DNA of 41,205 nucleotides from an uncultured bacterium (GTDB lineage Bacteria; Hydrothermota; UBA3072), in NCBI GenBank assembly GCA_964604245.1, contig CAZRYJ010000001.1, forward strand, positions 23,686-64,890. The letters run 5' to 3'. Below the pieces are notes generated by a model, which was not told where the DNA came from, made no database searches, and saw only the letters and a program-made list of their open reading frames with translations. Positions 4,452-40,716 of this stretch are shown here, piece by piece. Every line of letters begins with the position of its first letter. Position 1 is the first letter of the stretch. The position numbers and the translations under genes are program-made.

Positions 4452-4524
4452 TGGAGCCGACGGGACTTGAACCCGTGCCCTTCTGACTGCCAGTCAGACG
4501 CGCTACCAACTGCGCCACGGCCCC
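4452..4524 (-). tRNA. tRNA-Ala (anticodon GGC)
   Basis: Minus-strand sequence GGGGCCGTGGCGCAGTTGGTAGCGCGTCTGACTGGCAGTCAGAAGGGCACGGGTTCAAGTCCCGTCGGCTCCA folds into a 73-nt cloverleaf: 7-bp acceptor, GCGC D-stem, TCTGA/TCAGA anticodon stem, loop CTGGCAG, TTCAAGT T-loop. It has the G3:U70 alanine identity pair. CCA is not encoded. Confidence 0.93.
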
Positions 4525-4759: not shown

Positions 4760-4955
4760 CGAGAAGATTAACTATCTTTCCCATATGAAGTGTACTTGTA
4801 ACAATAAGAATATCCCTGATATCAGCAAAAATCAATTGTTTAATAGGATTGTAAATCACAGACTCTTTGCCAACCGGTAAAAAATGTTTATTTGTAACTT
4901 TTGTTAAAGGATACAGCCTGTCCCCTTTTCCTCCTGCGAGTATTACACCTTTTAT
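4760..4955 (-). pseudogene. N-terminal remnant of a sugar-phosphate nucleotidyltransferase (RmlA/GalU-like)
   Basis: Minus-strand translation reads (I)KGVILAGGKGDRLYPLTKVTNKHFLPVGKESVIYNPIKQLIFADIRDILIVTSTLHMGKIVNLLGTG. GxLAGGxGxRLxPLT is the nucleotidyltransferase signature. ATA occupies the position of the expected ATG. Homology stops after about 65 codons where repeat-module sequence begins. Confidence 0.6.
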
Positions 4956-5173
4956 ATATCTTAAAAATAAAAATATACTTACTTTTTGTGTAGTTCCCTG
5001 GAATATTTGTATTCCAAAGAGAGTTCATCCCGTGAAATAGCTTGCTATTCCACGGGACAGGCCCGAGAGCGGAAGTGGTGGCTTCCTCTGCTTTCAGAAA
5101 TCAACCACGGCTTTTTGAGGGATTCAGGCTCCGCCTTTTAAAAAAATGGGGAGATGCAAGTGTAGTTGCACTA

Positions 5174-5202
5174 TTGACAATAAGAAACTTTTCTGTAATT
5201 AT
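5174..5202 (+). promoter_or_regulatory. putative promoter placed for a leaderless or near-leaderless transcript of the GT-C gene
   Basis: TTGACA 5174-5179, a 16-17 nt spacer, then TAATTA/AATTAT 5196-5202. The ATG is at 5208 and no Shine-Dalgarno sequence is present. Confidence 0.4.
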
Positions 5203-7631: not shown

Positions 7632-8066
7632 TTACCTACCTGGTACCAATGTTAAAGTAGACGAAAGACCACCTTTACAACCACCCTCTATAGTATAAGA
7701 TGTTCCAGTAAAACCAGTACCAGAAACCGCTTCATAACCTACTTGTCCTTCGTTAGTCTCAAGAGAAAAATTAAACGCCCCCGGAGTAACTGCAGCATAA
7801 CGAGACCTTGTACCATCGTACGGATTCATGAAGTTTGTCGGTATTTCATTTATAAGCAATGGTTCGGCATCATTTGGATATCTACCCATTTCATCTATAG
7901 ACAACGACTCAACAGTTACCTGCAAAGTATGCTGATTAGCTTTCACCGAAGCGCATTTAGCTCTGTCCACTATCTTTACAAAGTTCGGGATGGCTATAGC
8001 TGCAAGAATACCAATGATGACGACCACAACCATTAACTCGATAAGCGTAAAACCACGTTTCTTCAT
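7632..8066 (-). CDS. type IV pilin (prepilin-type N-terminal cleavage/methylation domain)
   Basis: 144 aa. MKKRGFTLIELMVVVVIIGILAAIAIPNF is a class III signal peptide with Glu+5. Two Cys residues could form a C-terminal disulfide. Strong SD (taggaggtcat before the ATG). Confidence 0.85.
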   Translation of the reverse strand: MKKRGFTLIELMVVVVIIGILAAIAIPNFVKIVDRAKCASVKANQHTLQVTVESLSIDEMGRYPNDAEPLLINEIPTNFMNPYDGTRSRYAAVTPGAFNFSLETNEGQVGYEAVSGTGFTGTSYTIEGGCKGGLSSTLTLVPGR

Positions 8067-8273
8067 ATGACCTCCTAAATTTAAAAGTTTAACTTAACTA
8101 CCACAATAAACAAATCAATAGTAATCATATACCAATATCTATACAAGAAGCATTCCTGAAAAAAAGACATTGATTTCCAAATACTTAAACCTGATCATGT
8201 TTGCAAAGTGCAAATTTCCTTGCAAAATCCGTAAAATAAATTTAACATAAAACTCTCAGAGTTCATCGTAAAA

Positions 8274-8681
8274 TTAGTAAATTCTGCCTGCAGTAAGAAT
8301 AAGGTTAAGCGGAATTGCATTTTTACCCAAACCGGTAATAGTGTAATTGTCGTATGGATTCGTTTTGTACTCCACCACGCCTTCAACATCGGCACCAGTT
8401 TCATCCTGAACTACCGGAGCAAGCGGGTTAAAAGGATTATTCATTCCCGGAGGCAAATCATCAGAAAACAAAATGACAGAAGCTGGATAACTTCCCGGGT
8501 TATCCAAACAATAAAACTCTACTTCAACTTGAGTTGTATGCATATTAGCTTTTACTTCCGCTACCTTAGCTTGAACAACAATTCTAACATAGTTAGGTAT
8601 TGCTATTGCAGCAAGAATGCCAATGATCACAATTACTACCATGAGCTCAATTAACGTAAACCCCTCTTTCTTCCTTATCAT
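8274..8681 (-). CDS. type IV pilin paralog
   Basis: I start it at ATG 8681, giving MIRKKEGFTLIELMVVIVIIGILAAIAIPNY with a short pilin leader. The ORF-track start at 8729 would add 16 non-pilin residues and contains a TTGACA box. Confidence 0.8.
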   Translation of the reverse strand: MIRKKEGFTLIELMVVIVIIGILAAIAIPNYVRIVVQAKVAEVKANMHTTQVEVEFYCLDNPGSYPASVILFSDDLPPGMNNPFNPLAPVVQDETGADVEGVVEYKTNPYDNYTITGLGKNAIPLNLILTAGRIY

Positions 8682-8786
8682 ATACTTAAAAATACGAAAA
8701 AAATCAAAAATGTCAAGGCTAAAATTCATTTTCCATAAATTAATTAAAAAAATTTACTACAAAAAGCACACCCGCAACCCCTGATA

Positions 8787-8938
8787 TTAACCACGAAACA
8801 CACGAAAAACACGAAACCCAACCCCCCGGAATGGGACGCAGATGCACGCAGATTTTCAGGATTTGAATCCCCCTTCCACCCCAGATTAATTAGCCACAGA
8901 TTTGTACTGATAGACACGGATACCCTTCCCACCACCCC
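8787..8938 (+). repeat. three consecutive three-word modules
   Basis: 8787-8827 ttaaccacgaaacacacgaaaaacacgaaacccaacccccc; 8833-8882 gggacgcagatgcacgcagattttcaggatttgaatcccccttccacccc; 8886-8938 ttaattagccacagatttgtactgatagacacggatacccttcccaccacccc. The middle and last units recur at 20885-20950. Confidence 0.8.
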
Positions 8939-9113: not shown

Positions 9114-9160
9114 AACCCTAGCGCGGCAAAGCCGCTAAAATGTAAAAATTAAATATCAAA

Positions 9161-9532
9161 ATGGAAAATGATAAATCAAAGTTCAAAAATGAATTCAAAA
9201 AAAGGCTATACAACTTTGTCCTGAAGCTTATTGAATTTTTAGATGTCTTACCTAAAGATAATGTTTCTAAAAGACTTGGAGATCAATTGCTTCGCAGTGG
9301 TACAAGTATCTTAGGTAATTACGTTGAAGGTCAATCTGCAAGCAGTAAGAAAGATTTTACCAATTATTTCAATTATTCTCTTAAGTCTACTAATGAAAGT
9401 AAGCTATGGATTAATCTTCTTAAGGATAGCAAAAGAGCTACACAAGAACAAGTTAACTGGTTTTTAGAGGAATTGGATGAAATAAGCAAGATTTTCGCTT
9501 CAAGTATTCTTATCCTGAAGGGCAAAAGATGA
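9161..9532 (+). CDS. four-helix-bundle protein (23S rRNA intervening-sequence protein family; same family as DGR Avd)
   Basis: 123 aa. Family-typical pattern ...LPKDNVSKRLGDQLLRSGTSILGNYVEGQSASSKKDFTNYFNYSLKSTNESKLWINLL. Confidence 0.8.
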   Translation: MENDKSKFKNEFKKRLYNFVLKLIEFLDVLPKDNVSKRLGDQLLRSGTSILGNYVEGQSASSKKDFTNYFNYSLKSTNESKLWINLLKDSKRATQEQVNWFLEELDEISKIFASSILILKGKR

Positions 9533-9660
9533 TTTTACATTTTTATTTGTCATTTTGCTTTTTAAATTTTGATATTTTATTTATCAGAAAAAGGCGGTGG
9601 AATTAAATGGGATATTTTTTTGCAAAAAAACAAAAAGTTGACTGACAGTACCACAGGTTT

Positions 9661-10961: not shown

Positions 10962-11072
10962 CCCCAAAAGATTTAGACAGGATTTACAAGATTAACAGGA
11001 TAAGGTGTTTATTTAAAGCCCATCCCAACCCCAAAAGATTTAGACAGGATTTACAAGATTAACAGGATAAGG
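10962..11072 (+). repeat. 44-bp direct repeat (two copies) forming the left flank of GxxExxY copy 1
   Basis: ccccaaaagatttagacaggatttacaagattaacaggataagg occurs at 10962-11005 and 11029-11072. A third copy is at 23038-23080. Confidence 0.85.
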
Positions 11073-11092
11073 ATATAAATAAGATAAAATAA

Positions 11093-11470
11093 ATGAAATA
11101 CGAAAAGCTTACTGAAAAAATAATCGGTTGCGCTTATCAAGTTTACAATAAAATGGGGTTTGGCTTTTTGGAATCGGTTTATGAAAAATGCTTGATGATT
11201 GAGTTGAAGAAAACGGGACTCAAAGCTGAATCACAACATCCTATTGTAGTTCATTATGAAGATACAGTTGTAGGAGAGTTTGCAGCTGATATCATTGTTG
11301 AAGATTCGATTATACTGGAAATAAAAGCTGTAAGACATATAGCCAAGGCACATGAAGTTCAATTAGTCAACTATCTAAATGCAACCCAAAAGGATATAGG
11401 GTTGATTATCAATTTTGGAGAAAAAGAAGTCGAAATAAAGAGAAAAATTCGAAAATTGCCAGAAAAATAA
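11093..11470 (+). CDS. GxxExxY protein (PD-(D/E)XK nuclease-fold family), copy 1, apparently intact
   Basis: 125 aa. GFGFLESVYEKCL contains the GxxExxY motif; ADIIVEDSIILEIKA contains D...E-x-K core residues. TAA immediately precedes the ATG (aaaataaATGaa). Confidence 0.8.
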   Translation: MKYEKLTEKIIGCAYQVYNKMGFGFLESVYEKCLMIELKKTGLKAESQHPIVVHYEDTVVGEFAADIIVEDSIILEIKAVRHIAKAHEVQLVNYLNATQKDIGLIINFGEKEVEIKRKIRKLPEK

Positions 11471-11517
11471 TTTCATTTGGTCACTCAAATAACAAATAAT
11501 TTTTTTTATCTTTATTT

Positions 11518-11735
11518 CCTGTTATCCTGTCTATCTTTTTTTTATAACATATATTATTTCTTTATCCTGTCCATCCTGTTATCCTTTTTATGTTTTTTTA
11601 CAACAAAACTATTTTTTTTATCCTGTTGATCCTGTCTAAGTTTCTTTTAAATAAATTGTATCTTTATCTAGTCTACCCTGTTATCCTGTCTATCTTTTTT
11701 TTATAACATATATTATTTCTTTATCCTGTCCATCC
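11518..11735 (+). repeat. 59-bp direct repeat (two copies, 159 bp apart) in the right flank of GxxExxY copy 1
   Basis: cctgttatcctgtctatcttttttttataacatatattatttctttatcctgtccatcc occurs at 11518-11576 and 11677-11735. Its atcctgt words are the inverse of the left-flank acaggat words. Confidence 0.85.
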
Positions 11736-11896
11736 GTGCAAATCCGTGGCAAATTAGAACAAAAAATAAATTGGGTGTGGTGGGGCAATCTTGTGCTAAT
11801 CTCGTGTAATCTCGTGGTTCAAAACTGAAATCCTCACTTCCATCAGTATAGATAGAAATGAGGACCTCAGAGAAATGCAAGAAAGGAAGGAAAATC

Positions 11897-12781
11897 TTAC
11901 TGCATTTCGCTTTTTTTCAAATCCAGGGTAAAGGAATTACTACTCTCTCCCCCTCTTTCATCCCTGGCTTTTATTTTAACCAAAAACGAGGTATCTTTAT
12001 CAACTTCCGGAGCTTCCCAGATAAGCCTATTACCTTGAAGGCTCATGCCGGGTGGTCCTTCTTCGAGAGTCAAATTAAAATTATCGCCGTCCGCATCTTC
12101 CGCTTCTATCTCGTATTTCATTAACCCTTTTTCCCCCTGGAGTGAACCTATTATTATTTCAGGAGGCGTATTCTGCACGGCAATTTTTTCTATTTTAACT
12201 TTCTTTCCCCTGCCAAAACCATCGAAAGGCTCGACTTCCGCGTGAATCTCATCTCCTGCCTTTATTTTACCCCCGGGTAATTTTTCTCCACTAAAAGCGT
12301 ACTCTCCGTTTATGAACCACTCAACTAAAAAACTTACACTATCTTTCTCATCTGGATCTCTCACATCACCCTGAACAGAAAGCTCATCTTCATTGCGTGG
12401 TTCTGACGGTTCTATTCTTACCCAATTGATCTCCGGTTTTGTATTCGCGATAACAACTGGTCCTACCCTCTTTTTCTCTTTTCCGTCAATTAGAATTAAA
12501 CACACAACGGTATCTCCTTTTGAAAAATGATTCGGAGATAACAAAGCTTTATCAACTCCTTTAGCGACCCCATTAACCAACCATTCAAACTCAGCATTTC
12601 CTCCTGAGATTAAAGTCGCGTCAATGGTAATAGGATCTATTGTCCTCGGGTTTACGGGCGAAAACTTTGAGGATACAAAACCTACCGCATCAGCTCCAGC
12701 GGAGGAATCCTTTTCTCCGCCGCAGCCGAATATCAAAAAAAGAATTGCGCAGAAAATTAATCCCGATCTTCGTCTTTCCAT
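11897..12781 (-). CDS. lipoprotein with Ig-like/cadherin-like repeats, last gene of the minor-pilin operon
   Basis: 294 aa. Lipobox LFLIFGCGG. Repeated beta-sandwich-like segments, the last resembling a putative-Ig/cadherin-like domain (DADGDNFNLTLEEGPPGMSLQGNRLIWEAP). Overlaps the pilY1-like gene by 25 nt. Confidence 0.55.
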   Translation of the reverse strand: MERRRSGLIFCAILFLIFGCGGEKDSSAGADAVGFVSSKFSPVNPRTIDPITIDATLISGGNAEFEWLVNGVAKGVDKALLSPNHFSKGDTVVCLILIDGKEKKRVGPVVIANTKPEINWVRIEPSEPRNEDELSVQGDVRDPDEKDSVSFLVEWFINGEYAFSGEKLPGGKIKAGDEIHAEVEPFDGFGRGKKVKIEKIAVQNTPPEIIIGSLQGEKGLMKYEIEAEDADGDNFNLTLEEGPPGMSLQGNRLIWEAPEVDKDTSFLVKIKARDERGGESSNSFTLDLKKSEMQ

Positions 12782-17431: not shown

Positions 17432-18058
17432 CTAATTTGCTCTCGGTCCTCTTATGTTTCTAATCTGGACCGTTTCACGATAAGTTACTTTTTTTTCGCC
17501 ATCCGGATATACAAATCGAACGGCATAATCAATCATGTTTATAGGATAGCTTCCCGGATCTTTTCCCGGCGTCGCTGGATCTGGCATCACCCAATTCCCA
17601 ACTCCATCAACTTCCGAAACACTACCAGCAGTAATAGTATCACCATTTACATCGATATAAGTAAATCCAAGAGAGTCAAGAAAGTTTGCAGCCCTGTCAC
17701 CATCTATAAACAGAGTATCTCCTCTTTTCGTTATCGAATGAATGTCTTCGGGATTATCCACAACACCTTCTGTATCACCAAAAACATCATGCGTATACAA
17801 AATCGAATCGCTGCTTCCCTTAATGATTCCAAAATTATCATCCGGAGAGAGCGGTCTCTGACAAAAACCTACATGCCTGAGTTCATTTACAATGTACTCG
17901 CTTGCCCTCCTGGCTTTAATATTTACTCGGGAAAATCCTTGCTGGTTTCTTAATCCTCTCTGCTGCAATATAAACAGCTGATAGATAAAAGCAGAAATAA
18001 TACCCATAAAAACCAAGACCACCATCAATTCAATTAATGTAAAACCTTTCTTTTTCAT
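17432..18058 (-). CDS. PilW-like minor pilin (prepilin N-terminal methylation motif)
   Basis: 208 aa, MKKKGFTLIELMVVLVFMGIISAFIYQLF. Third pilin-like gene in the operon. Confidence 0.65.
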   Translation of the reverse strand: MKKKGFTLIELMVVLVFMGIISAFIYQLFILQQRGLRNQQGFSRVNIKARRASEYIVNELRHVGFCQRPLSPDDNFGIIKGSSDSILYTHDVFGDTEGVVDNPEDIHSITKRGDTLFIDGDRAANFLDSLGFTYIDVNGDTITAGSVSEVDGVGNWVMPDPATPGKDPGSYPINMIDYAVRFVYPDGEKKVTYRETVQIRNIRGPRAN

Positions 18059-18072
18059 TTTTTCTCCTCAAT

Positions 18073-18552: not shown

Positions 18553-18998
18553 TGTAACCTCGCTTCCATTACCCCAAGAGGGGAAATATAAAAAGTTATC
18601 AACTTTCCTGTCTCATCATCTTCCACAGAGAAATCTCTAACATTATTTTCGGCTCTGACAAATCCGTCAACATGTACGATTAGCTCAATAGGGTTTGTAC
18701 CACCATCAAAATCCAAATCCAGCCCCTCCCGCAAAACTAATTCACCATTCCTTGAAACATCAGCACTAATATATCCCAAAAGATCATCCTCTCTATCTAT
18801 CCTAATTATATATCTAGATCCCTCGGTTACAGCCTTCTTATTCACCCCCTCATAAAAAGCCCTTACCTCATTCATTGTCTCTTCCAACCTGCTCCTCGCA
18901 AAAAGGTCCCTATAAGAAAAAACCGCAATACCGGCAAGCAGTCCAATTATCACGATAACAACTAACAATTCAATAAGCGTAAAACCTTTAGTTTTCAT
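18549..18998 (-). CDS. FimT/FimU/GspH-like minor pilin, first gene of the operon
   Basis: 149 aa, MKTKGFTLIELLVVIVIIGLLAGIAVFSY. SD gaggag lies 4 nt upstream of the ATG. Confidence 0.65.
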   Translation of the reverse strand: MKTKGFTLIELLVVIVIIGLLAGIAVFSYRDLFARSRLEETMNEVRAFYEGVNKKAVTEGSRYIIRIDREDDLLGYISADVSRNGELVLREGLDLDFDGGTNPIELIVHVDGFVRAENNVRDFSVEDDETGKLITFYISPLGVMEARLQ

Positions 18999-19215
18999 TT
19001 TTTCTCCTCTTTTTTATTATACAAATTACGTTCCTGAAATTAAGGCATTCATTTTCAATAACTTATTTTCGAAGACTATGTAATCGCCTTCGAATGTATG
19101 TAATCCGTTTCATAGTATAAAGTATTGGTTTCGAGTTATAGTGTCTGAAAGAAATATGAGTTAAGTAAGAGAATATAAGAATTCTCACCTTTTAACAGTC
19201 GACTTAAAGTATTCT

Positions 19216-20760: not shown

Positions 20761-20821
20761 TATGTCAAGCCCAATGTTATTTTAACTGGAACTTTACGAT
20801 TTTTTCATGACACCATAATAT

Positions 20822-21239
20822 AAATTAAATATCAAAATTCAAAAAGCAAAATGACAAATAAAAATACAAAAACTAAAAATGATAGGACGCAGATGAACAC
20901 AGATTTTCAGGATTTGCCCCACTCCACTCCAGATTAATTAGCCACTGATTTTCAGCCTGGTACGATCGTTCCTCCCTACAGGGCAGGCTGATAGGCACTG
21001 ATCCCCCCACCTAACCCATATTTTAAACTAAAAAAATATCTTATATCTGTATACATCTCTGTCAATCTATAGTTAATTTAGGTGTTGTGGGTTGAGGAAA
21101 ACAAAAAAAAATCCTGTTAATCTTTTTTTTATCCTGTCAAAATATTGGGGATCTGGGTTGGGATTTAAACAAAAAAAATCTTGTAAATCTACGTTCATCT
21201 GCGTCCAATTTTCGGTGGTAGTGGGTGCGGCTTTGCCGC
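20822..21239. repeat. gene-less composite of repeat modules, a 4HB-flank relic and a solo GxxExxY-type terminal repeat
   Basis: 20822-20872 resembles the reverse complement of the 3' flank of the 4HB gene (9538-9590). 20885-20950 matches 8833-8903. 21108-21166 (atcctgttaatc...atcctgtcaaaatattggggatctgggttgggattt) matches the GxxExxY right-end repeat. 21190-21207 is an inverted copy of 20885-20905. Hairpin gcggctttgccgc at 21227-21239. Confidence 0.7.
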
Positions 21240-22928: not shown

Positions 22929-23005
22929 ATTAGCCACTAAGCCACGAAGGCACAAAGAAAAAAAACTAATATATTTTAACCACGAAACACACTAAAGACA
23001 CGAAA
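22929..23005 (+). repeat. two three-word modules directly after the membrane-protein stop codon
   Basis: 22929-22957 attagccactaagccacgaaggcacaaag (AAG-type words, like 40288-40320). 22976-23005 ttaaccacgaaacacactaaagacacgaaa. Confidence 0.75.
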
Positions 23006-23024: not shown

Positions 23025-23080
23025 CCCAACCCCAAAACCCCAAATATTTAGACAGGATTTACAAGATTAACAGGATAAGG
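23025..23080 (+). repeat. left terminal inverted repeat of GxxExxY copy 2
   Basis: cccaaccccaaaaccccaaatatttagacaggatttacaagattaacaggataagg. Its reverse complement aligns with 23461-23507. Confidence 0.75.
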
Positions 23081-23100
23081 ATATAAAGAAAACAAAATAA

Positions 23101-23361
23101 ATGAAATACGAAAAACTTACTGAAAAAATAATTGGTTGCGCTTATCAAGTTTATAATAAAATGGGGTTTGGATTTCTGGAATCGGTCTATGAAAAATGTC
23201 TAATGCTCGAATTGAACAAAACAGGGCTCAAAGCTAAAGCACATGAAGTTAAATTAGTCAACTATTTGAATGCAACTCAAAAGGATATAGGGTTGATTAT
23301 CGATTTTGGAGAAAAAGAAGTTGAAATAAAAAGAAAATTTCGAAAATTGCCAGAAAGTTAA
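23101..23361 (+). pseudogene. GxxExxY protein copy 2 with an in-frame 39-codon internal deletion (catalytic core missing)
   Basis: 86 aa and about 90 percent identical to copy 1 on both sides of the gap. ...KTGLKA|KAHEVKLVNYL... lacks ESQHPIVVHYEDTVVGEFAADIIVEDSIILEIKAVRHIA. The reading frame is retained. Confidence 0.7.
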
Positions 23362-23460
23362 TTTGTTGGGTTTTTTAAATAACAAATAATATTTTTTTAT
23401 CCTGTCCATCCTGTTATCCTGTCCAAATATTTCGGGGTTGTGTTGGGTTTTAAAAAACAA

Positions 23461-25921: not shown

Positions 25922-25936
25922 ATTAACCTCCTAAAA

Positions 25937-26044
25937 TTAACCACAGATTACACAGATTAACACAAGATTACCACACACAACTACCCCATTTAATTTTTTT
26001 TTAACCACTAAACACACGAAAAACACTAAACCCCACAACACACC
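25937..26044 (+). repeat. two archetypal three-word modules
   Basis: 25937-25987 ttaaccacagattacacagattaacacaagattaccacacacaactacccc. 26001-26044 ttaaccactaaacacacgaaaaacactaaaccccacaacacacc, which closely matches the reverse complement of 91-134. Confidence 0.85.
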
Positions 26045-26202
26045 ATTTTTATCATGTTTTTAAAACTAGCCCCCCATACCCAAAAATTAGAAACAACGAA
26101 TTGCACGAATAGCACAAATAAAGTTTTTTGTTTCTTTTTCTGAATCCTAAATCCTAATTTTTTCATTTTGCTTTTTAATATTTAATTTTTAAACTTCTTA
26201 TG

Positions 26203-28568: not shown

Positions 28569-28682
28569 TTATTTTTATTTTATTTATTTAAGACCCTACT
28601 CACAACCCCTAAATTAGCCACAGATTAACATGGATACAAAAAAATTCTAAAAAATTCTAAAAATTAAAAACAATAAAAAAAC

Positions 28683-28733: not shown

Positions 28734-29465
28734 TCAAAATACTTCTGGATTATTGGAAATTATATTTCTTAAATCTCCTGCAAACTTTGTCGTTAAGAGC
28801 TTATCAACGTTTCCCAATGAATACTCATAGCCCGCGTCAAAATCTATTTTCCCTAAAAAAGGAACATTAAGAGAAGTCAATTTATTCTCTTTTTCTTCGA
28901 TTTCTGAAATTGCTATATTTTCAACGAGGCCAATCACCTTTTTCTTTGCCTCATTAGTCATACGCAATACTTTTTTCAAGGTTTCTAAAGTCAACTTCGA
29001 CTGGTTCCCAACCATAATAAACTCTATGTTATTTATAACTCTTATAACATCTAAAGTGATATCCCCGATACCCGGAGGCATGTCGATAACGAGATAATCA
29101 AGACTCCCCCATCTCGTTATAGCCAGTAGTTCAATTATTGCATTCGAAAAATCTTCTCCCCTGAGAGGCAAAGGATTCTCTCCTGCAAAATAAACAATAG
29201 ACATAAACATAATTCCTCTTACTTCAGGAGGAATAATACCCTTTTCCTCTTCGGGAAAAACATCCCCAGCACCAAGAATTATATGGTCAGTCGGACCGCT
29301 TAGATCAAGATCAAGAAGACCCACCTTGTTTCCCATGTCCTTAAGGATTAAAGCGAGCATAGAAGAGACAGAACTCTTTCCTACTCCTCCCTTACCTCCA
29401 GAAACGGCAATTATCTTCTTAATACCGGAAAACCTGGAATCAATTACATTAAATCTGGGATCCAT
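28734..29465 (-). CDS. Mrp/MinD-family P-loop ATPase, cysteine-free (candidate ATPase-type HypB partner of HypA)
   Basis: 243 aa. Deviant Walker A IAVSGGKGGVGKSS and switch region LVIDMPPGIGD. No Cys anywhere, so the CxxC Fe-S ligands of ApbC/Mrp carriers are absent. Adjacent to hypA. Confidence 0.7.
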   Translation of the reverse strand: MDPRFNVIDSRFSGIKKIIAVSGGKGGVGKSSVSSMLALILKDMGNKVGLLDLDLSGPTDHIILGAGDVFPEEEKGIIPPEVRGIMFMSIVYFAGENPLPLRGEDFSNAIIELLAITRWGSLDYLVIDMPPGIGDITLDVIRVINNIEFIMVGNQSKLTLETLKKVLRMTNEAKKKVIGLVENIAISEIEEKENKLTSLNVPFLGKIDFDAGYEYSLGNVDKLLTTKFAGDLRNIISNNPEVF

Positions 29466-29539
29466 AAAATTAACTTACCCCTTTCATAGTATTACCGATA
29501 AATTTTCCGTATTTACTCCACAAGGTAATACCCCTGATT

Positions 29540-29697
29540 GAGGCGAGGGTTGACCGTTCAGAAGGACGTCTCGGAAGCCGAGCGGCCACGGTCTCTTGAA
29601 ATACACTTATTTCAAGAGGAGCAAGGCTGAGAGCGAGCGGCAATTTCCTCGGTGGGGAAATTGACCGCGTTCCTGATGAATGGCTAACCCTCGCCTC
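29540..29697. ncRNA. candidate structured RNA (multi-helix junction); family not identified, strand unresolved (flanking genes are on minus)
   Basis: 12-bp closing helix 29540-29551 (gaggcgagggtt) with 29686-29697 (aaccctcgcctc). Inner helices: 29552-29557/29588-29593 enclosing hairpin 29570-29582; an 11-bp hairpin at 29593-29618; a 12-bp hairpin at 29637-29668. Local GC is far above the AT-rich background. The only ORF across it (29470-29907) overlaps hypA and looks spurious. Confidence 0.5.
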
Positions 29698-29764
29698 TCT
29701 TTTAATTTCAAATGCCTTAAGCTCCAGATGGTGCGTCAGGTTCTCCGTGGTTGATTTTTGCATT

Positions 29765-30172
29765 TTATAGGCTCTCCCCCTCAATGTATTCAATCCAGAC
29801 TCCCCGCCCCCTCGAAACTTCAAAATCCGGACTTCCGCAACGAGGACACTTCGAATAAACTCGAATGATATCCGGAATAAAGTGTACATACTCAGATTCG
29901 TCTTCATCTAAACCCTTAATACTTTCTTCGAAATCCCACTTGCGCCCACAAATTCTACACTCAAATGACGCATTTTCTTCTTCTACAACAAATTTGCACG
30001 TTATATTTTTCAATTTTGAAACTTCATCTAAAGCAGAATTAAAGATATCTATCTCTATCTGCTGTAATTTGCCAATTCGGACAAGCACTTTATTAACCTT
30101 CAAAAGTTTTTTTTCTTCTTTATATTTTAAAACGGTATTCGCAACCGATTCGGCTAAAGCCCACTCATGCAC
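29765..30172 (-). CDS. hypA: hydrogenase nickel-incorporation protein HypA
   Basis: 135 aa. N-terminal MHEWALA nickel-site motif and two CxxC zinc pairs (CRICG...CPRCG). Confidence 0.85.
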   Translation of the reverse strand: MHEWALAESVANTVLKYKEEKKLLKVNKVLVRIGKLQQIEIDIFNSALDEVSKLKNITCKFVVEEENASFECRICGRKWDFEESIKGLDEDESEYVHFIPDIIRVYSKCPRCGSPDFEVSRGRGVWIEYIEGESL

Positions 30173-39696: not shown

Positions 39697-40323
39697 ATGA
39701 AAAAAATCCAGTTGCAAACACCCTTATCAGCAAAAGACGTAAAAAATTTATCTGTGGGAGATACTGTTTTTTTAAGCGGTAAACTTTTCACCGCAAGGGA
39801 CGAGACACACAAGAAAATGCTTGAACTAAAAAGAAAGGGCAAAAAAACACCCTTCAACCCCAACGAAATGGCTTTATTCCACTGTGGTCCCGTTGTTAGG
39901 AAAGAAAAAAACGAATGGGTAATAATATCCGCAGGACCTACAACTTCAATTAGAATGGAAAACTTTGAAAGTGAATTCTTATCAACGTTCGGAGTACGGA
40001 TGATAATCGGTAAAGGCGGAATGGGAGAACAGACCTTAAAAGCCCTAAAAAAAACAGGGGCTGTATATACACATCTAACCGGTGGAACGGGTGCACTCGG
40101 GGCAAAAGCTGTAAAGAAAGTAGAAAACGTTTACTTTCTTGAAGAACTCGGAATACCGGAAGCTGCCTGGATACTTACCGTAGAGAATTTTGGCCCTCTC
40201 ATAGTAACAATGGATGCAAAGGGAAACAGTTTTTATGCCCACTTAGAAAAGGAAAGAAGAAAAAATCTTGAAAAAATCAATAAAGAAATTAGCCACAAAG
40301 ACACGAAGACACAAAGAAAATAA
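39697..40323 (+). CDS. class I fumarate hydratase / tartrate dehydratase, beta subunit
   Basis: 208 aa. LSGKLFTARDETHKKM and IGKGGMG motifs. The last 11 codons (ISHKDTKTQRK) and the stop are encoded by repeat module 40288-40320. Confidence 0.8.
   Translation: MKKIQLQTPLSAKDVKNLSVGDTVFLSGKLFTARDETHKKMLELKRKGKKTPFNPNEMALFHCGPVVRKEKNEWVIISAGPTTSIRMENFESEFLSTFGVRMIIGKGGMGEQTLKALKKTGAVYTHLTGGTGALGAKAVKKVENVYFLEELGIPEAAWILTVENFGPLIVTMDAKGNSFYAHLEKERRKNLEKINKEISHKDTKTQRK
40288..40320 (+). repeat. AAG-word module, left inverted flank of GxxExxY copy 3
   Basis: attagccacaaagacacgaagacacaaagaaaa. The inverse partner is at 40718-40742. Confidence 0.75.
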
Positions 40324-40716
40324 ATGAACTTTAAACCATTATCTAAGAAAGAAGAAGAAATAGCAAAAAAAATCGTAGATTCTGCATATACGGTTCATAA
40401 AGAATTAGGTGCAGGTTTACTTGAAAAAGTATACGAAACATGCTTTTGCCACGAATTATCTAAACGGGGAATTGAATTCAAAAGACAAATTCCGATTCCA
40501 ATAATCTATGACGGGGTCAAATTCGATGAAGGATTACGTTTGGATGTTCTCATAGAAGACAAAATTATATGTGAATTAAAAGCACTCGACCAAATGAATC
40601 CCGTATGGGAAGCTCAAATATTAAGTTATTTAAAATTAACTAACAAACGCTTGGGGTTTCTCATAAATTTTAATGTACCATTAATAAAAAAAGGTATAAA
40701 AAGATATGTTTTATAA
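40324..40716 (+). CDS. GxxExxY protein (PD-(D/E)XK fold), copy 3, divergent from copies 1 and 2
   Basis: 130 aa. GAGLLEKVYETCF contains the GxxExxY motif; RLDVLIEDKIICELKA contains D...E-x-K. The ATG directly follows the fumarase beta stop codon (aaaataaATGaa, the same junction as copies 1 and 2). Confidence 0.8.
   Translation: MNFKPLSKKEEEIAKKIVDSAYTVHKELGAGLLEKVYETCFCHELSKRGIEFKRQIPIPIIYDGVKFDEGLRLDVLIEDKIICELKALDQMNPVWEAQILSYLKLTNKRLGFLINFNVPLIKKGIKRYVL

Follow-up and report, generated by a model that had tools for sequence, protein, structure and literature searches.

The element described here lies at positions 29540–29697 of a 41,205-nt stretch of genomic DNA from an uncultured bacterium (hereafter the window), in the gap between hypA and the gene of an Mrp/NUBPL-type P-loop ATPase (mrp). 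Our analysis showed that it belongs to a low-copy, dispersed and strand-specific family of structured elements, which undergo gain, loss and duplication and have no functional tie to their neighbours. Its members measure roughly 155–160 nt. In all, 20 related copies of two subtypes, standard and variant, were found in metagenomes and metagenome-assembled genomes (MAGs) of one lineage, named by its RarA homologues as candidate division WOR-3. A previous sequence-only reading of the window had presented the segment as a candidate novel structured RNA and had linked it, as a guess, to nickel or hydrogenase maturation. The first proposal stands, as the element is conserved, covaries and has no Rfam match, while the second reflects an accident of position.

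The gap between the two genes measures 299 nt, and the perfect 12-bp closing helix noticed in the sequence-only reading was confirmed, 29540–29551 (GAGGCGAGGGTT) being the exact reverse complement of 29686–29697 (AACCCTCGCCTC). The 158-nt segment has a GC content of 0.563, against 0.375 for the window. It reaches a minimum free energy (MFE) of −87 kcal/mol when the + strand is folded (z −8.8) and of −76.5 kcal/mol for the − strand (z −7.1), and none of 200 shuffled sequences was as stable. Among 4106 segments of 158 nt scanned on both strands, it ranks first in stability (−84 against a mean of −27, standard deviation 8.4) and is still the top outlier once stability is regressed on GC content. 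The structured segment is real and lies far beyond chance. Neither a pattern search for close copies of GAGGCGAGGGTT nor repeat finding returned a second copy in the window.

Related copies were gathered through matches to the translation of a 97-aa open reading frame (ORF) called across the segment, and by one metagenome scan with the alignment of these copies. This yielded 15 distinct copies with 85–97% DNA identity (alignment A2), to which five copies of the second subtype were added (alignment A5, 20 copies). RNAalifold folds the 15 copies into a three-way junction with junction strands of 0, 1 and 2 nt. The core element (29540–29697, structured strand +) scores 183 bits with the covariance model (CM) R1. 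The 5′ strand of helix P1 (29540–29566) comprises 21 bp (29540–29560), the dinucleotide GA (29561–29562) and 4 bp more (29563–29566); its partner, 29671–29697, holds a conserved CUGAUGA, whose GA makes a tandem GA/GA loop. The P2 arm (29567–29635, +) is formed by long-range stems (29567–29572/29631–29635 and 29576–29583/29621–29628) with purine-rich internal loops and by an 11-bp apex hairpin (29593–29603/29608–29618) with a hypervariable loop at 29604–29607. P3 (29637–29668, +) is a 14-bp hairpin, interrupted by a single bulged A and capped by a GGU loop (29651–29653), and is the part of the element with the highest sequence conservation.

This structure differs from the one drawn in the sequence-only reading, which was a four-way junction. 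Two of its hairpins, at 29593–29618 (11 bp, the P2 apex) and 29637–29668 (12 bp as claimed, 12–14 bp here, P3), are real and conserved. The 6-bp helix 29552–29557/29588–29593 and the 5-bp hairpin 29570–29582 can be drawn in the window sequence, but across the 15 copies they are paired in 88.9% (10 broken cells) and 88.0% (9 broken cells) of cases, with almost no compensation, whereas the competing P1 and P2 pairings are 97–100% paired and covary. The reading had also reported an 8-bp hairpin beside the element. It exists in the window (29489–29496/29524–29531), is imperfect in the closest relative, locus L019, and is absent elsewhere; as it is not conserved, it was dropped as part of the element. 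A pseudoknot joining the GCCACGG internal loop to the P3 loop was also rejected, since a comparison of the two subtypes, standard and variant, showed no covariation.

Standard pairs occupy 98.5% of the 885 pair cells (59 pairs in 15 copies). Changes on both sides were found at 18 pairs of A2, and none of 500 shuffles reached any of five measures; when partners were slid as a control, pairing was 37–46%. In A5, double changes appear at 34 of the 59 pairs and 97% of cells are paired, counts that are somewhat inflated because this alignment was fitted to the structure model and leans toward it. Compensatory changes in P1 affect 11 of 23 pairs in A2, and 16 of 19 plus 3 of 4 in A5. In P2 they were observed at A2 columns 31–97, 37–92, 41–89, 44–86, 59–80, 60–79 and 67–72, with more in A5; the stem swaps include C-G to A-U (31–97), A-U to G-C (37–92), C-G to U-A (41–89) and G-C to A-U (44–86). 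In addition, two G·U pairs are retained in 13 of the 15 copies.

The same 59 pairs read on the two strands of the 15 copies reveal which of them carries the fold. The + strand has 807 Watson-Crick, 65 G·U and 13 mismatched cells, and the − strand 807, 5 and 73, respectively; pair columns with G·U number 23 on the + strand and 4 on the − strand. The RNAalifold consensus energy is −82.9 kcal/mol for the + and −58.3 kcal/mol for the − strand. Because one-sided changes leave G·U pairs on the + strand and C/A mismatches on the − strand, the selected strand is the + strand of the window, antisense to hypA and mrp.

The element occupies at least 11 different intergenic gaps. It is present in the hypA/mrp gap of the window and L019 and, as the standard type, in the purD/rarA gap of L012, L013 and L014, and is also found in the hisF/exo-endonuclease gap of L017 and L031. 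Other gaps adjoin genes for an MFS transporter, an FAD oxidase with a TonB receptor, an isocitrate/isopropylmalate dehydrogenase, a sugar nucleotidyltransferase, PEMT and GH43, and DUF498 and MreB, among others. These neighbours are unrelated housekeeping genes, and no reverse transcriptase, transposase, integrase or Cas gene is among them. In the seven contexts with co-directional neighbours, the structured strand is antisense to both genes in all seven; the sole sense-oriented case is the second copy of L022, relative to its upstream gene. The window does not overlap any of the other loci. Copies are sparse: the 41-kb window has a single one, and the loci L034–L037, about 85 kb in total, have none beyond the gaps that were targeted. 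No similarity was detected in IMG/VR, plasmid or phage records, and a conserved 28-mer of the element is absent from IMG/VR. The sequence-only reading had considered that the segment could be another copy of a dispersed repeat; this holds in part, as the family is dispersed at low copy number, yet its single-strand structure is clearly selected.

Orthologous gaps differ in their content. In L010, whose Mrp is 81% identical, the hypA/mrp gap is without the element and filled with other repeats of the lineage, and therefore no clean insertion boundary can be read there. The hypA/mrp gap of L011 and L038 holds the variant subtype. In the purD/rarA gap, L034 and L039 have a variant-type element, L036 has AT-rich repeats only, L035 has an HNH endonuclease gene together with AT-rich repeats, and L037 has 28 nt and is too divergent for mapping the junction at base level. 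The L035 gene (9159–9779) is a free-standing HNH endonuclease gene of 206 aa, with PF01844 and PF14279 domains, and stands at the site that holds the element in relatives.

Loci L034 and L038 come from a single MAG (GCA_016930175.1), which shows that a genome can contain at least two copies. These are 89.5% identical and their differences, which are compensated, are confined to outer P1 and the P2 apex. Since paralogues of one genome differ by compensated changes, the structure has been maintained over time. Moreover, L022 carries two copies 2.3 kb apart, inside a 2.6-kb span, in opposite orientation.

Composite sites, in which a full variant copy is accompanied by fragments, were found in the hypA/mrp gap of L011 and L038, in the purD/rarA gap of L034 and L039, and at the second copy of L022. 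In L034, the last 51 nt of a standard element, 100% identical to that of L012 from core position 108, lie 9 nt past the full variant copy. L011 and L038 have one or two additional 3′ fragments. In the L022 composite, a complete copy stands in place of the stretch from the P2 apex to the 5′ strand of P3 of another copy. L039 presents two 5′ fragments before its full copy, both of which break off in the 5′ strand of the P2 apex. In standard numbering (loop 112–114), two 3′ remnants have their first base at core positions 108 and 118; in variant numbering (loop 107–109), three have theirs at 106, 106 and 110. All five begin within 4 nt of the P3 loop; therefore the 3′ junction is fixed there, and the 5′ junction varies. 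These composites could result from insertion targeted to hairpin loops of copies already in place; they could equally result from stalling at the very stable hairpins, after which the template is switched or paralogues undergo gene conversion.

Homology between contexts extends past P1, by about 50–95 nt on the 5′ side and about 55–62 nt on the 3′ side. These flanks come in two interchangeable types (A and B), and the conserved unit of the window spans approximately 29485–29752. Its 5′ flank (29485–29539, +) is of type A, reading CATAGTATTACC ... TATTTACTCCACAAGGTAATACCCCTGATT, and is about 45 nt shorter than in L022, L024, L025 and L031. The 3′ flank (29698–29752, +), also of type A, begins with UCUUUUAAUUU, forms a small hairpin at 29721–29734 and ends in CUCCGUGGUU, the complement of the 'AACCAC' gene-end motif of the lineage. 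Four type-A tails have a GAAA-capped hairpin. The ends of the conserved unit show no terminal inverted repeats, and no target-site duplication was seen at five junction pairs. RNAalifold also proposed that the type-A unit pairs end to end over 4 bp, with some compensation; this pairing was rejected as too short to trust.

By eye, an extended −10-like box (TGCTATAA or TGCTACAA) is located about 35 nt upstream of P1 in the type-B copies L023, L033 and L032, and TATTAT or TATTTA at a similar distance in type-A copies. Strong promoters in L023 and L033 are oppositely oriented and face the neighbouring genes. In about half of the copies, P1 runs directly into a U-rich tract.

We propose that the element is a small RNA transcribed from the strand opposite to its neighbours, in which the invariant core of P3, junction and inner P1 is a binding platform, and which has spread by duplication and insertion. 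We give this reading an even chance of being right. The structure would act in RNA, as a small and independently transcribed non-coding RNA; the conserved P3, junction and inner P1 would be the scaffold for a trans-acting protein, and outer P1 and the P2 apex would be free to vary. New copies would arise via duplication or insertion, with a preference for gaps between genes and for hairpin loops of existing copies. Hints of an RNA are the two G·U pairs retained in 13 of the 15 copies, the GAAA-capped hairpin of four type-A tails and the −10-like box of three type-B copies.

Several observations weigh against this proposal. A sigma-70 consensus scan of the structured strand of the window gave one 9/12 match, with 0.8 expected by chance; the same scan of L022, L023 and L033 gave no match on that strand, and a scan for intrinsic terminators found none anywhere. 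No partner protein was found, and the family is seen only in a narrow clade. The few conserved unpaired nucleotides and the 85–97% identity in stem sequence would also suit a recently spreading DNA element. Folded single-stranded DNA, like RNA, tolerates G·T wobble, tandem G·A pairs and GAAA loops, and thus strand asymmetry alone is no proof of RNA. The inflated pair counts of A5, described above, count on the same side.

The main rival, which we regard as possible if on the unlikely side, is that the segment is a DNA element, either mobile but non-autonomous or recombinogenic, which relies on its fold as single-stranded DNA and is not a functional RNA. Its models would be the ends of IS200/IS605-type elements, REP/RAYT repeats, integron attC sites and the attP hairpin of CTX phage. 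It accounts for the strand-specific pairing with G·T tolerated and for the high identity of the stems. Orthologous gaps that are filled or empty, two copies in one MAG and subtypes swapping at the same sites speak for it as well, as do the nesting and truncation of copies, with hairpin loops as the break sites, the lack of a clear promoter or terminator, and genomes rich in other intergenic palindromic repeats. On the other hand, no transposase (including Y1/HUH), RAYT, integrase or reverse transcriptase adjoins any copy in the loci scanned, the conserved unit continues past P1 without terminal inverted repeats or target duplication, and the copy number is low (one in the 41-kb window and, apart from the targeted gaps, zero in about 85 kb of L034–L037). 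The paralogues of a single genome differ by compensated changes. In IS200/IS605 elements or REP-RAYT systems, the active strand lies on the lagging-strand template; where genes are co-oriented with replication, this is their sense strand. If the co-directional genes follow replication, the structured strand of the present element would be the leading-strand template and not exposed single-stranded DNA.

The composite sites would also fit a further account, that of a self-targeting, structure-dependent mobile non-coding element, possibly with an RNA intermediate. It would insert itself into hairpin loops of copies already in place, although no enzyme gene lies next to it. Its 3′ entry would always be at the P3 loop and its 5′ entry point would be variable, twice within the P2 apex. 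We consider this account rather doubtful; if true, the element would be a bacterial analogue of SINE-like or template-switching retro-elements, or would represent a new hairpin-directed recombination.

An improbable alternative is that the element is an insulator or terminator, in which the long GC-rich P1 and the U-rich tract UCUUUUAAUUU stop antisense or read-in transcription between co-directional genes. It would be retained for being harmless, or of slight use, in the antisense orientation. The antisense placement in 7 of 7 co-directional contexts and the U-rich stretch after P1 in about half of the copies agree with such a role; however, a 158-nt three-way junction with a near-invariant P3 exceeds what a terminator needs, the U-tract is missing in L026, L027, L012 and L014, and the terminator scan was empty.

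The element is not a cis-regulator of the hydrogenase maturation genes. The nickel link and the role in intercistronic processing guessed in the sequence-only reading did not hold, as the helices are kept on the strand that opposes both genes, unrelated gaps carry the same element and the L010 gap lacks it. Because it occupies so many unrelated gene gaps, no specific tie to nickel or hydrogenase genes can be drawn. In particular, it is very improbable that the element regulates or processes the hypA-mrp operon in cis as an RNA, for example as a nickel/cobalt riboswitch or an intercistronic site. Such a role would explain the position between two hydrogenase maturation genes in the window and L019, and a − strand transcript would still fold (−76.5 kcal/mol), but the element is found in at least 10 unrelated contexts, L011 and L038 have a different subtype in this gap, and no NiCo or other riboswitch model matches.

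The Rfam comparison proposed in the sequence-only reading was made and no family matches the element; those without a match include NiCo, hammerhead, 6S, SRP, Y RNA/YrlA, HEARO/omega RNAs and retron. With Rfam 15 at gathering threshold, a tRNA at 4452–4524 is the only match in the whole window; at E ≤ 10, the region 29400–29850 gave three chance-level matches, with 12–15 bits against cut-offs of 42–80. Eight related loci and the composite copies gave no match either, and a literature search for WOR-3 non-coding RNA found no paper describing the family. Also very improbable is a very divergent housekeeping RNA (6S, SRP, RNase P, tmRNA or Y RNA) missed by the Rfam models. GC-rich structured islands in AT-rich genomes are often such RNAs, and the ends of the element form a closing helix. 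Yet there are two paralogues in one MAG, truncated and nested copies, absences at the same site in close relatives and a narrow distribution, and neither signature motifs nor weak Rfam matches at E ≤ 10 were found. A hammerhead ribozyme, which needs CUGANGA and GAAA core strands aligned around three helices and a UH cleavage site, was also considered, prompted by CUGAUGA (CUGACGA in L011), and was rejected: the GA pairs in the P1 GA/GA loop, the opposite strand has an out-of-register UCAGAAGGA, and at E ≤ 10 none of the hammerhead models gave a score.

The hypA gene is located at 29765–30172 (−; Pfam HypA, E = 5e-22) and mrp at 28734–29465 (−; PF10609, E = 4.5e-49). The gene beside hypA in this pair (28734–30172) thus encodes an Mrp/NUBPL-type P-loop ATPase (PF10609), not a canonical HypB GTPase; the pair resembles the HypA/Mrp-MinD-type 'HypB' pairing of Thermococcales. 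Public pipelines (JGI contigs) call the 97-aa ORF in the gap between them (29470–29763, −), which it fills exactly: the ATG is 1 nt past the hypA stop and the stop codon is 4 nt ahead of the mrp start. A search with its translation returned four more clusters of 60–74% identity, whose shared core is the structured segment and whose ends diverge, and a profile search of 1.84 billion representative proteins returned only 5 matches. The ORF has no Pfam domains. The variable columns at codon positions 1, 2 and 3 number 29, 25 and 24 in the 15 copies, with frameshifting length changes in 7 and in-frame stops in 10 of them. The ORF call is an artefact of the conserved GC-rich element and not a gene. 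A real protein gene retains virtually no probability: the exact fit to the gap and the 'conserved' central peptide of P0001–P0005 stand against the missing third-position bias, the frameshifts and stops, the lack of Pfam domains and the 5 database matches. Public 'hypothetical proteins' of 75–151 aa (P0001–P0005 and P0126–P0129; e.g., WOR-3 JW879_04730) are translations of the element, which exposes a recurrent false gene call, the 97-aa 'hypothetical protein', in public WOR-3 annotations.

For the poorly studied WOR-3 lineage, these results provide a new and well-supported structured element, with a structure model, a selected strand and a working covariance model. The fixed 3′ and variable 5′ breakpoints are an unusual footprint, which could reveal hairpin-directed insertion or template switching without an adjacent enzyme gene. 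A protein partner, if any, would be expected at the invariant core of P3 and junction.

Other repeats and structures were observed in the window. A lineage-wide intergenic motif, ATTA[A/G]CCAC, is followed by about three tandem units of about 10 nt (e.g., TTAACCACGAAACACACGAAAAACACGAAAC). The exact form ATTARCCAC has 9 matches, with 0.59 expected. In the window, the motif is located at 127–135 (−), 8786–8822, 8889–8897, 20937–20945, 22929–22965, 25935–25972, 28613–28621 (+)/28721–28729 (−) and 40288–40324; outside the window, this type of motif was seen at 2330–2480 of L010. It is often located just past a stop codon, in gene orientation, and sometimes as inverted pairs within one gap, and may be a gene-end punctuation or a protein-binding array. 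An AT-rich palindromic repeat, AAATATCAAAAT..CAAAATGACAAATCAAAGTTCAAAA, is dispersed at 9138–9188, 9533–9584, 20819–20871 and 26159–26196 of the window, and forms inverted pairs in the element-less purD/rarA gaps of L035 (8860–8920 and 9870–9930) and L036 (9739–9930).

Upstream of the tRNA (4452–4524), the stretch 4900–5200 (−) is a GC-enriched intergenic structure with perfect 15-bp and 11-bp hairpins, an MFE of −87.3 (z −4.75) and no Rfam match. A perfect 20-bp hairpin followed by a CCAC-type repeat is found at 11780–11990 (−; z −4.4), adjoining tandem repeats of 56–57 nt (11482–11758) that have a related copy at 23374–23434. The regions 11024–11473 and 23032–23364, 12 kb apart, contain duplicated non-coding segments of 212 and 133 nt with 89–91% identity. 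Finally, repeat family D3 (7993–8076, 8602–8685, 17985–18068 and 18925–19008) is a prepilin-like N-terminal coding segment common to four − strand genes, which indicates several type IV pilin or pseudopilin genes.

The element can be compared with several known systems. The NiCo (czcD) riboswitch is a four-way-junction sensor of Ni2+ and Co2+, and the only likeness to it is that the sequence-only reading saw four helices meeting close to a nickel-related gene; the element has a three-way junction on the wrong strand for this role, no covariance model match and no link to metal genes. The element resembles tRNA and tmRNA integration sites in that 3′ fragments, whose first bases fall in the loop of the symmetric P3 hairpin, come after a full copy. 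Unlike these sites, the fragments lie 9–60 nt from the full copy without an integrase-bearing island, and the full copy is not a host/element hybrid. The msr-msd region of retrons is likewise strand-specific and about 150–250 nt long, with an end-to-end closing helix (a1/a2) that encloses hairpins; in contrast, no copy of the element adjoins a reverse transcriptase gene or matches an Rfam retron.

Further parallels are intergenic structured repeats and MITE-like elements such as REP/BIME, ERIC, Correia/NEMIS, RUP and the Rickettsia palindromic elements, which are also dispersed and palindromic, with presence/absence polymorphism and nested copies. As for intergenic structured repeats, gene callers can read ORFs through the element. 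It differs from REP- and MITE-like repeats in its very low copy number over the loci covered, in a three-way junction instead of a simple hairpin, in a conserved unit that outruns the closing helix without terminal inverted repeats or target duplications, and in the selection on one strand with compensatory changes between paralogues.

Orphan structured non-coding RNA motifs have been sought as GC-rich islands in AT-rich bacterial intergenic regions (PMC11109978, PMC6429828, PMC8723152). The element differs from these motifs in its absence from Rfam 15, in having no conserved gene association, and in showing duplication, turnover and composites; unlike riboswitch and ribozyme candidates, it has very few conserved unpaired nucleotides. 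It shares with orphan motifs the GC-rich intergenic island in an AT-rich genome, the covariation across several helices and the narrow phylogenetic range. The family, absent from Rfam 15, belongs to a broad known kind, that of orphan structured intergenic elements.

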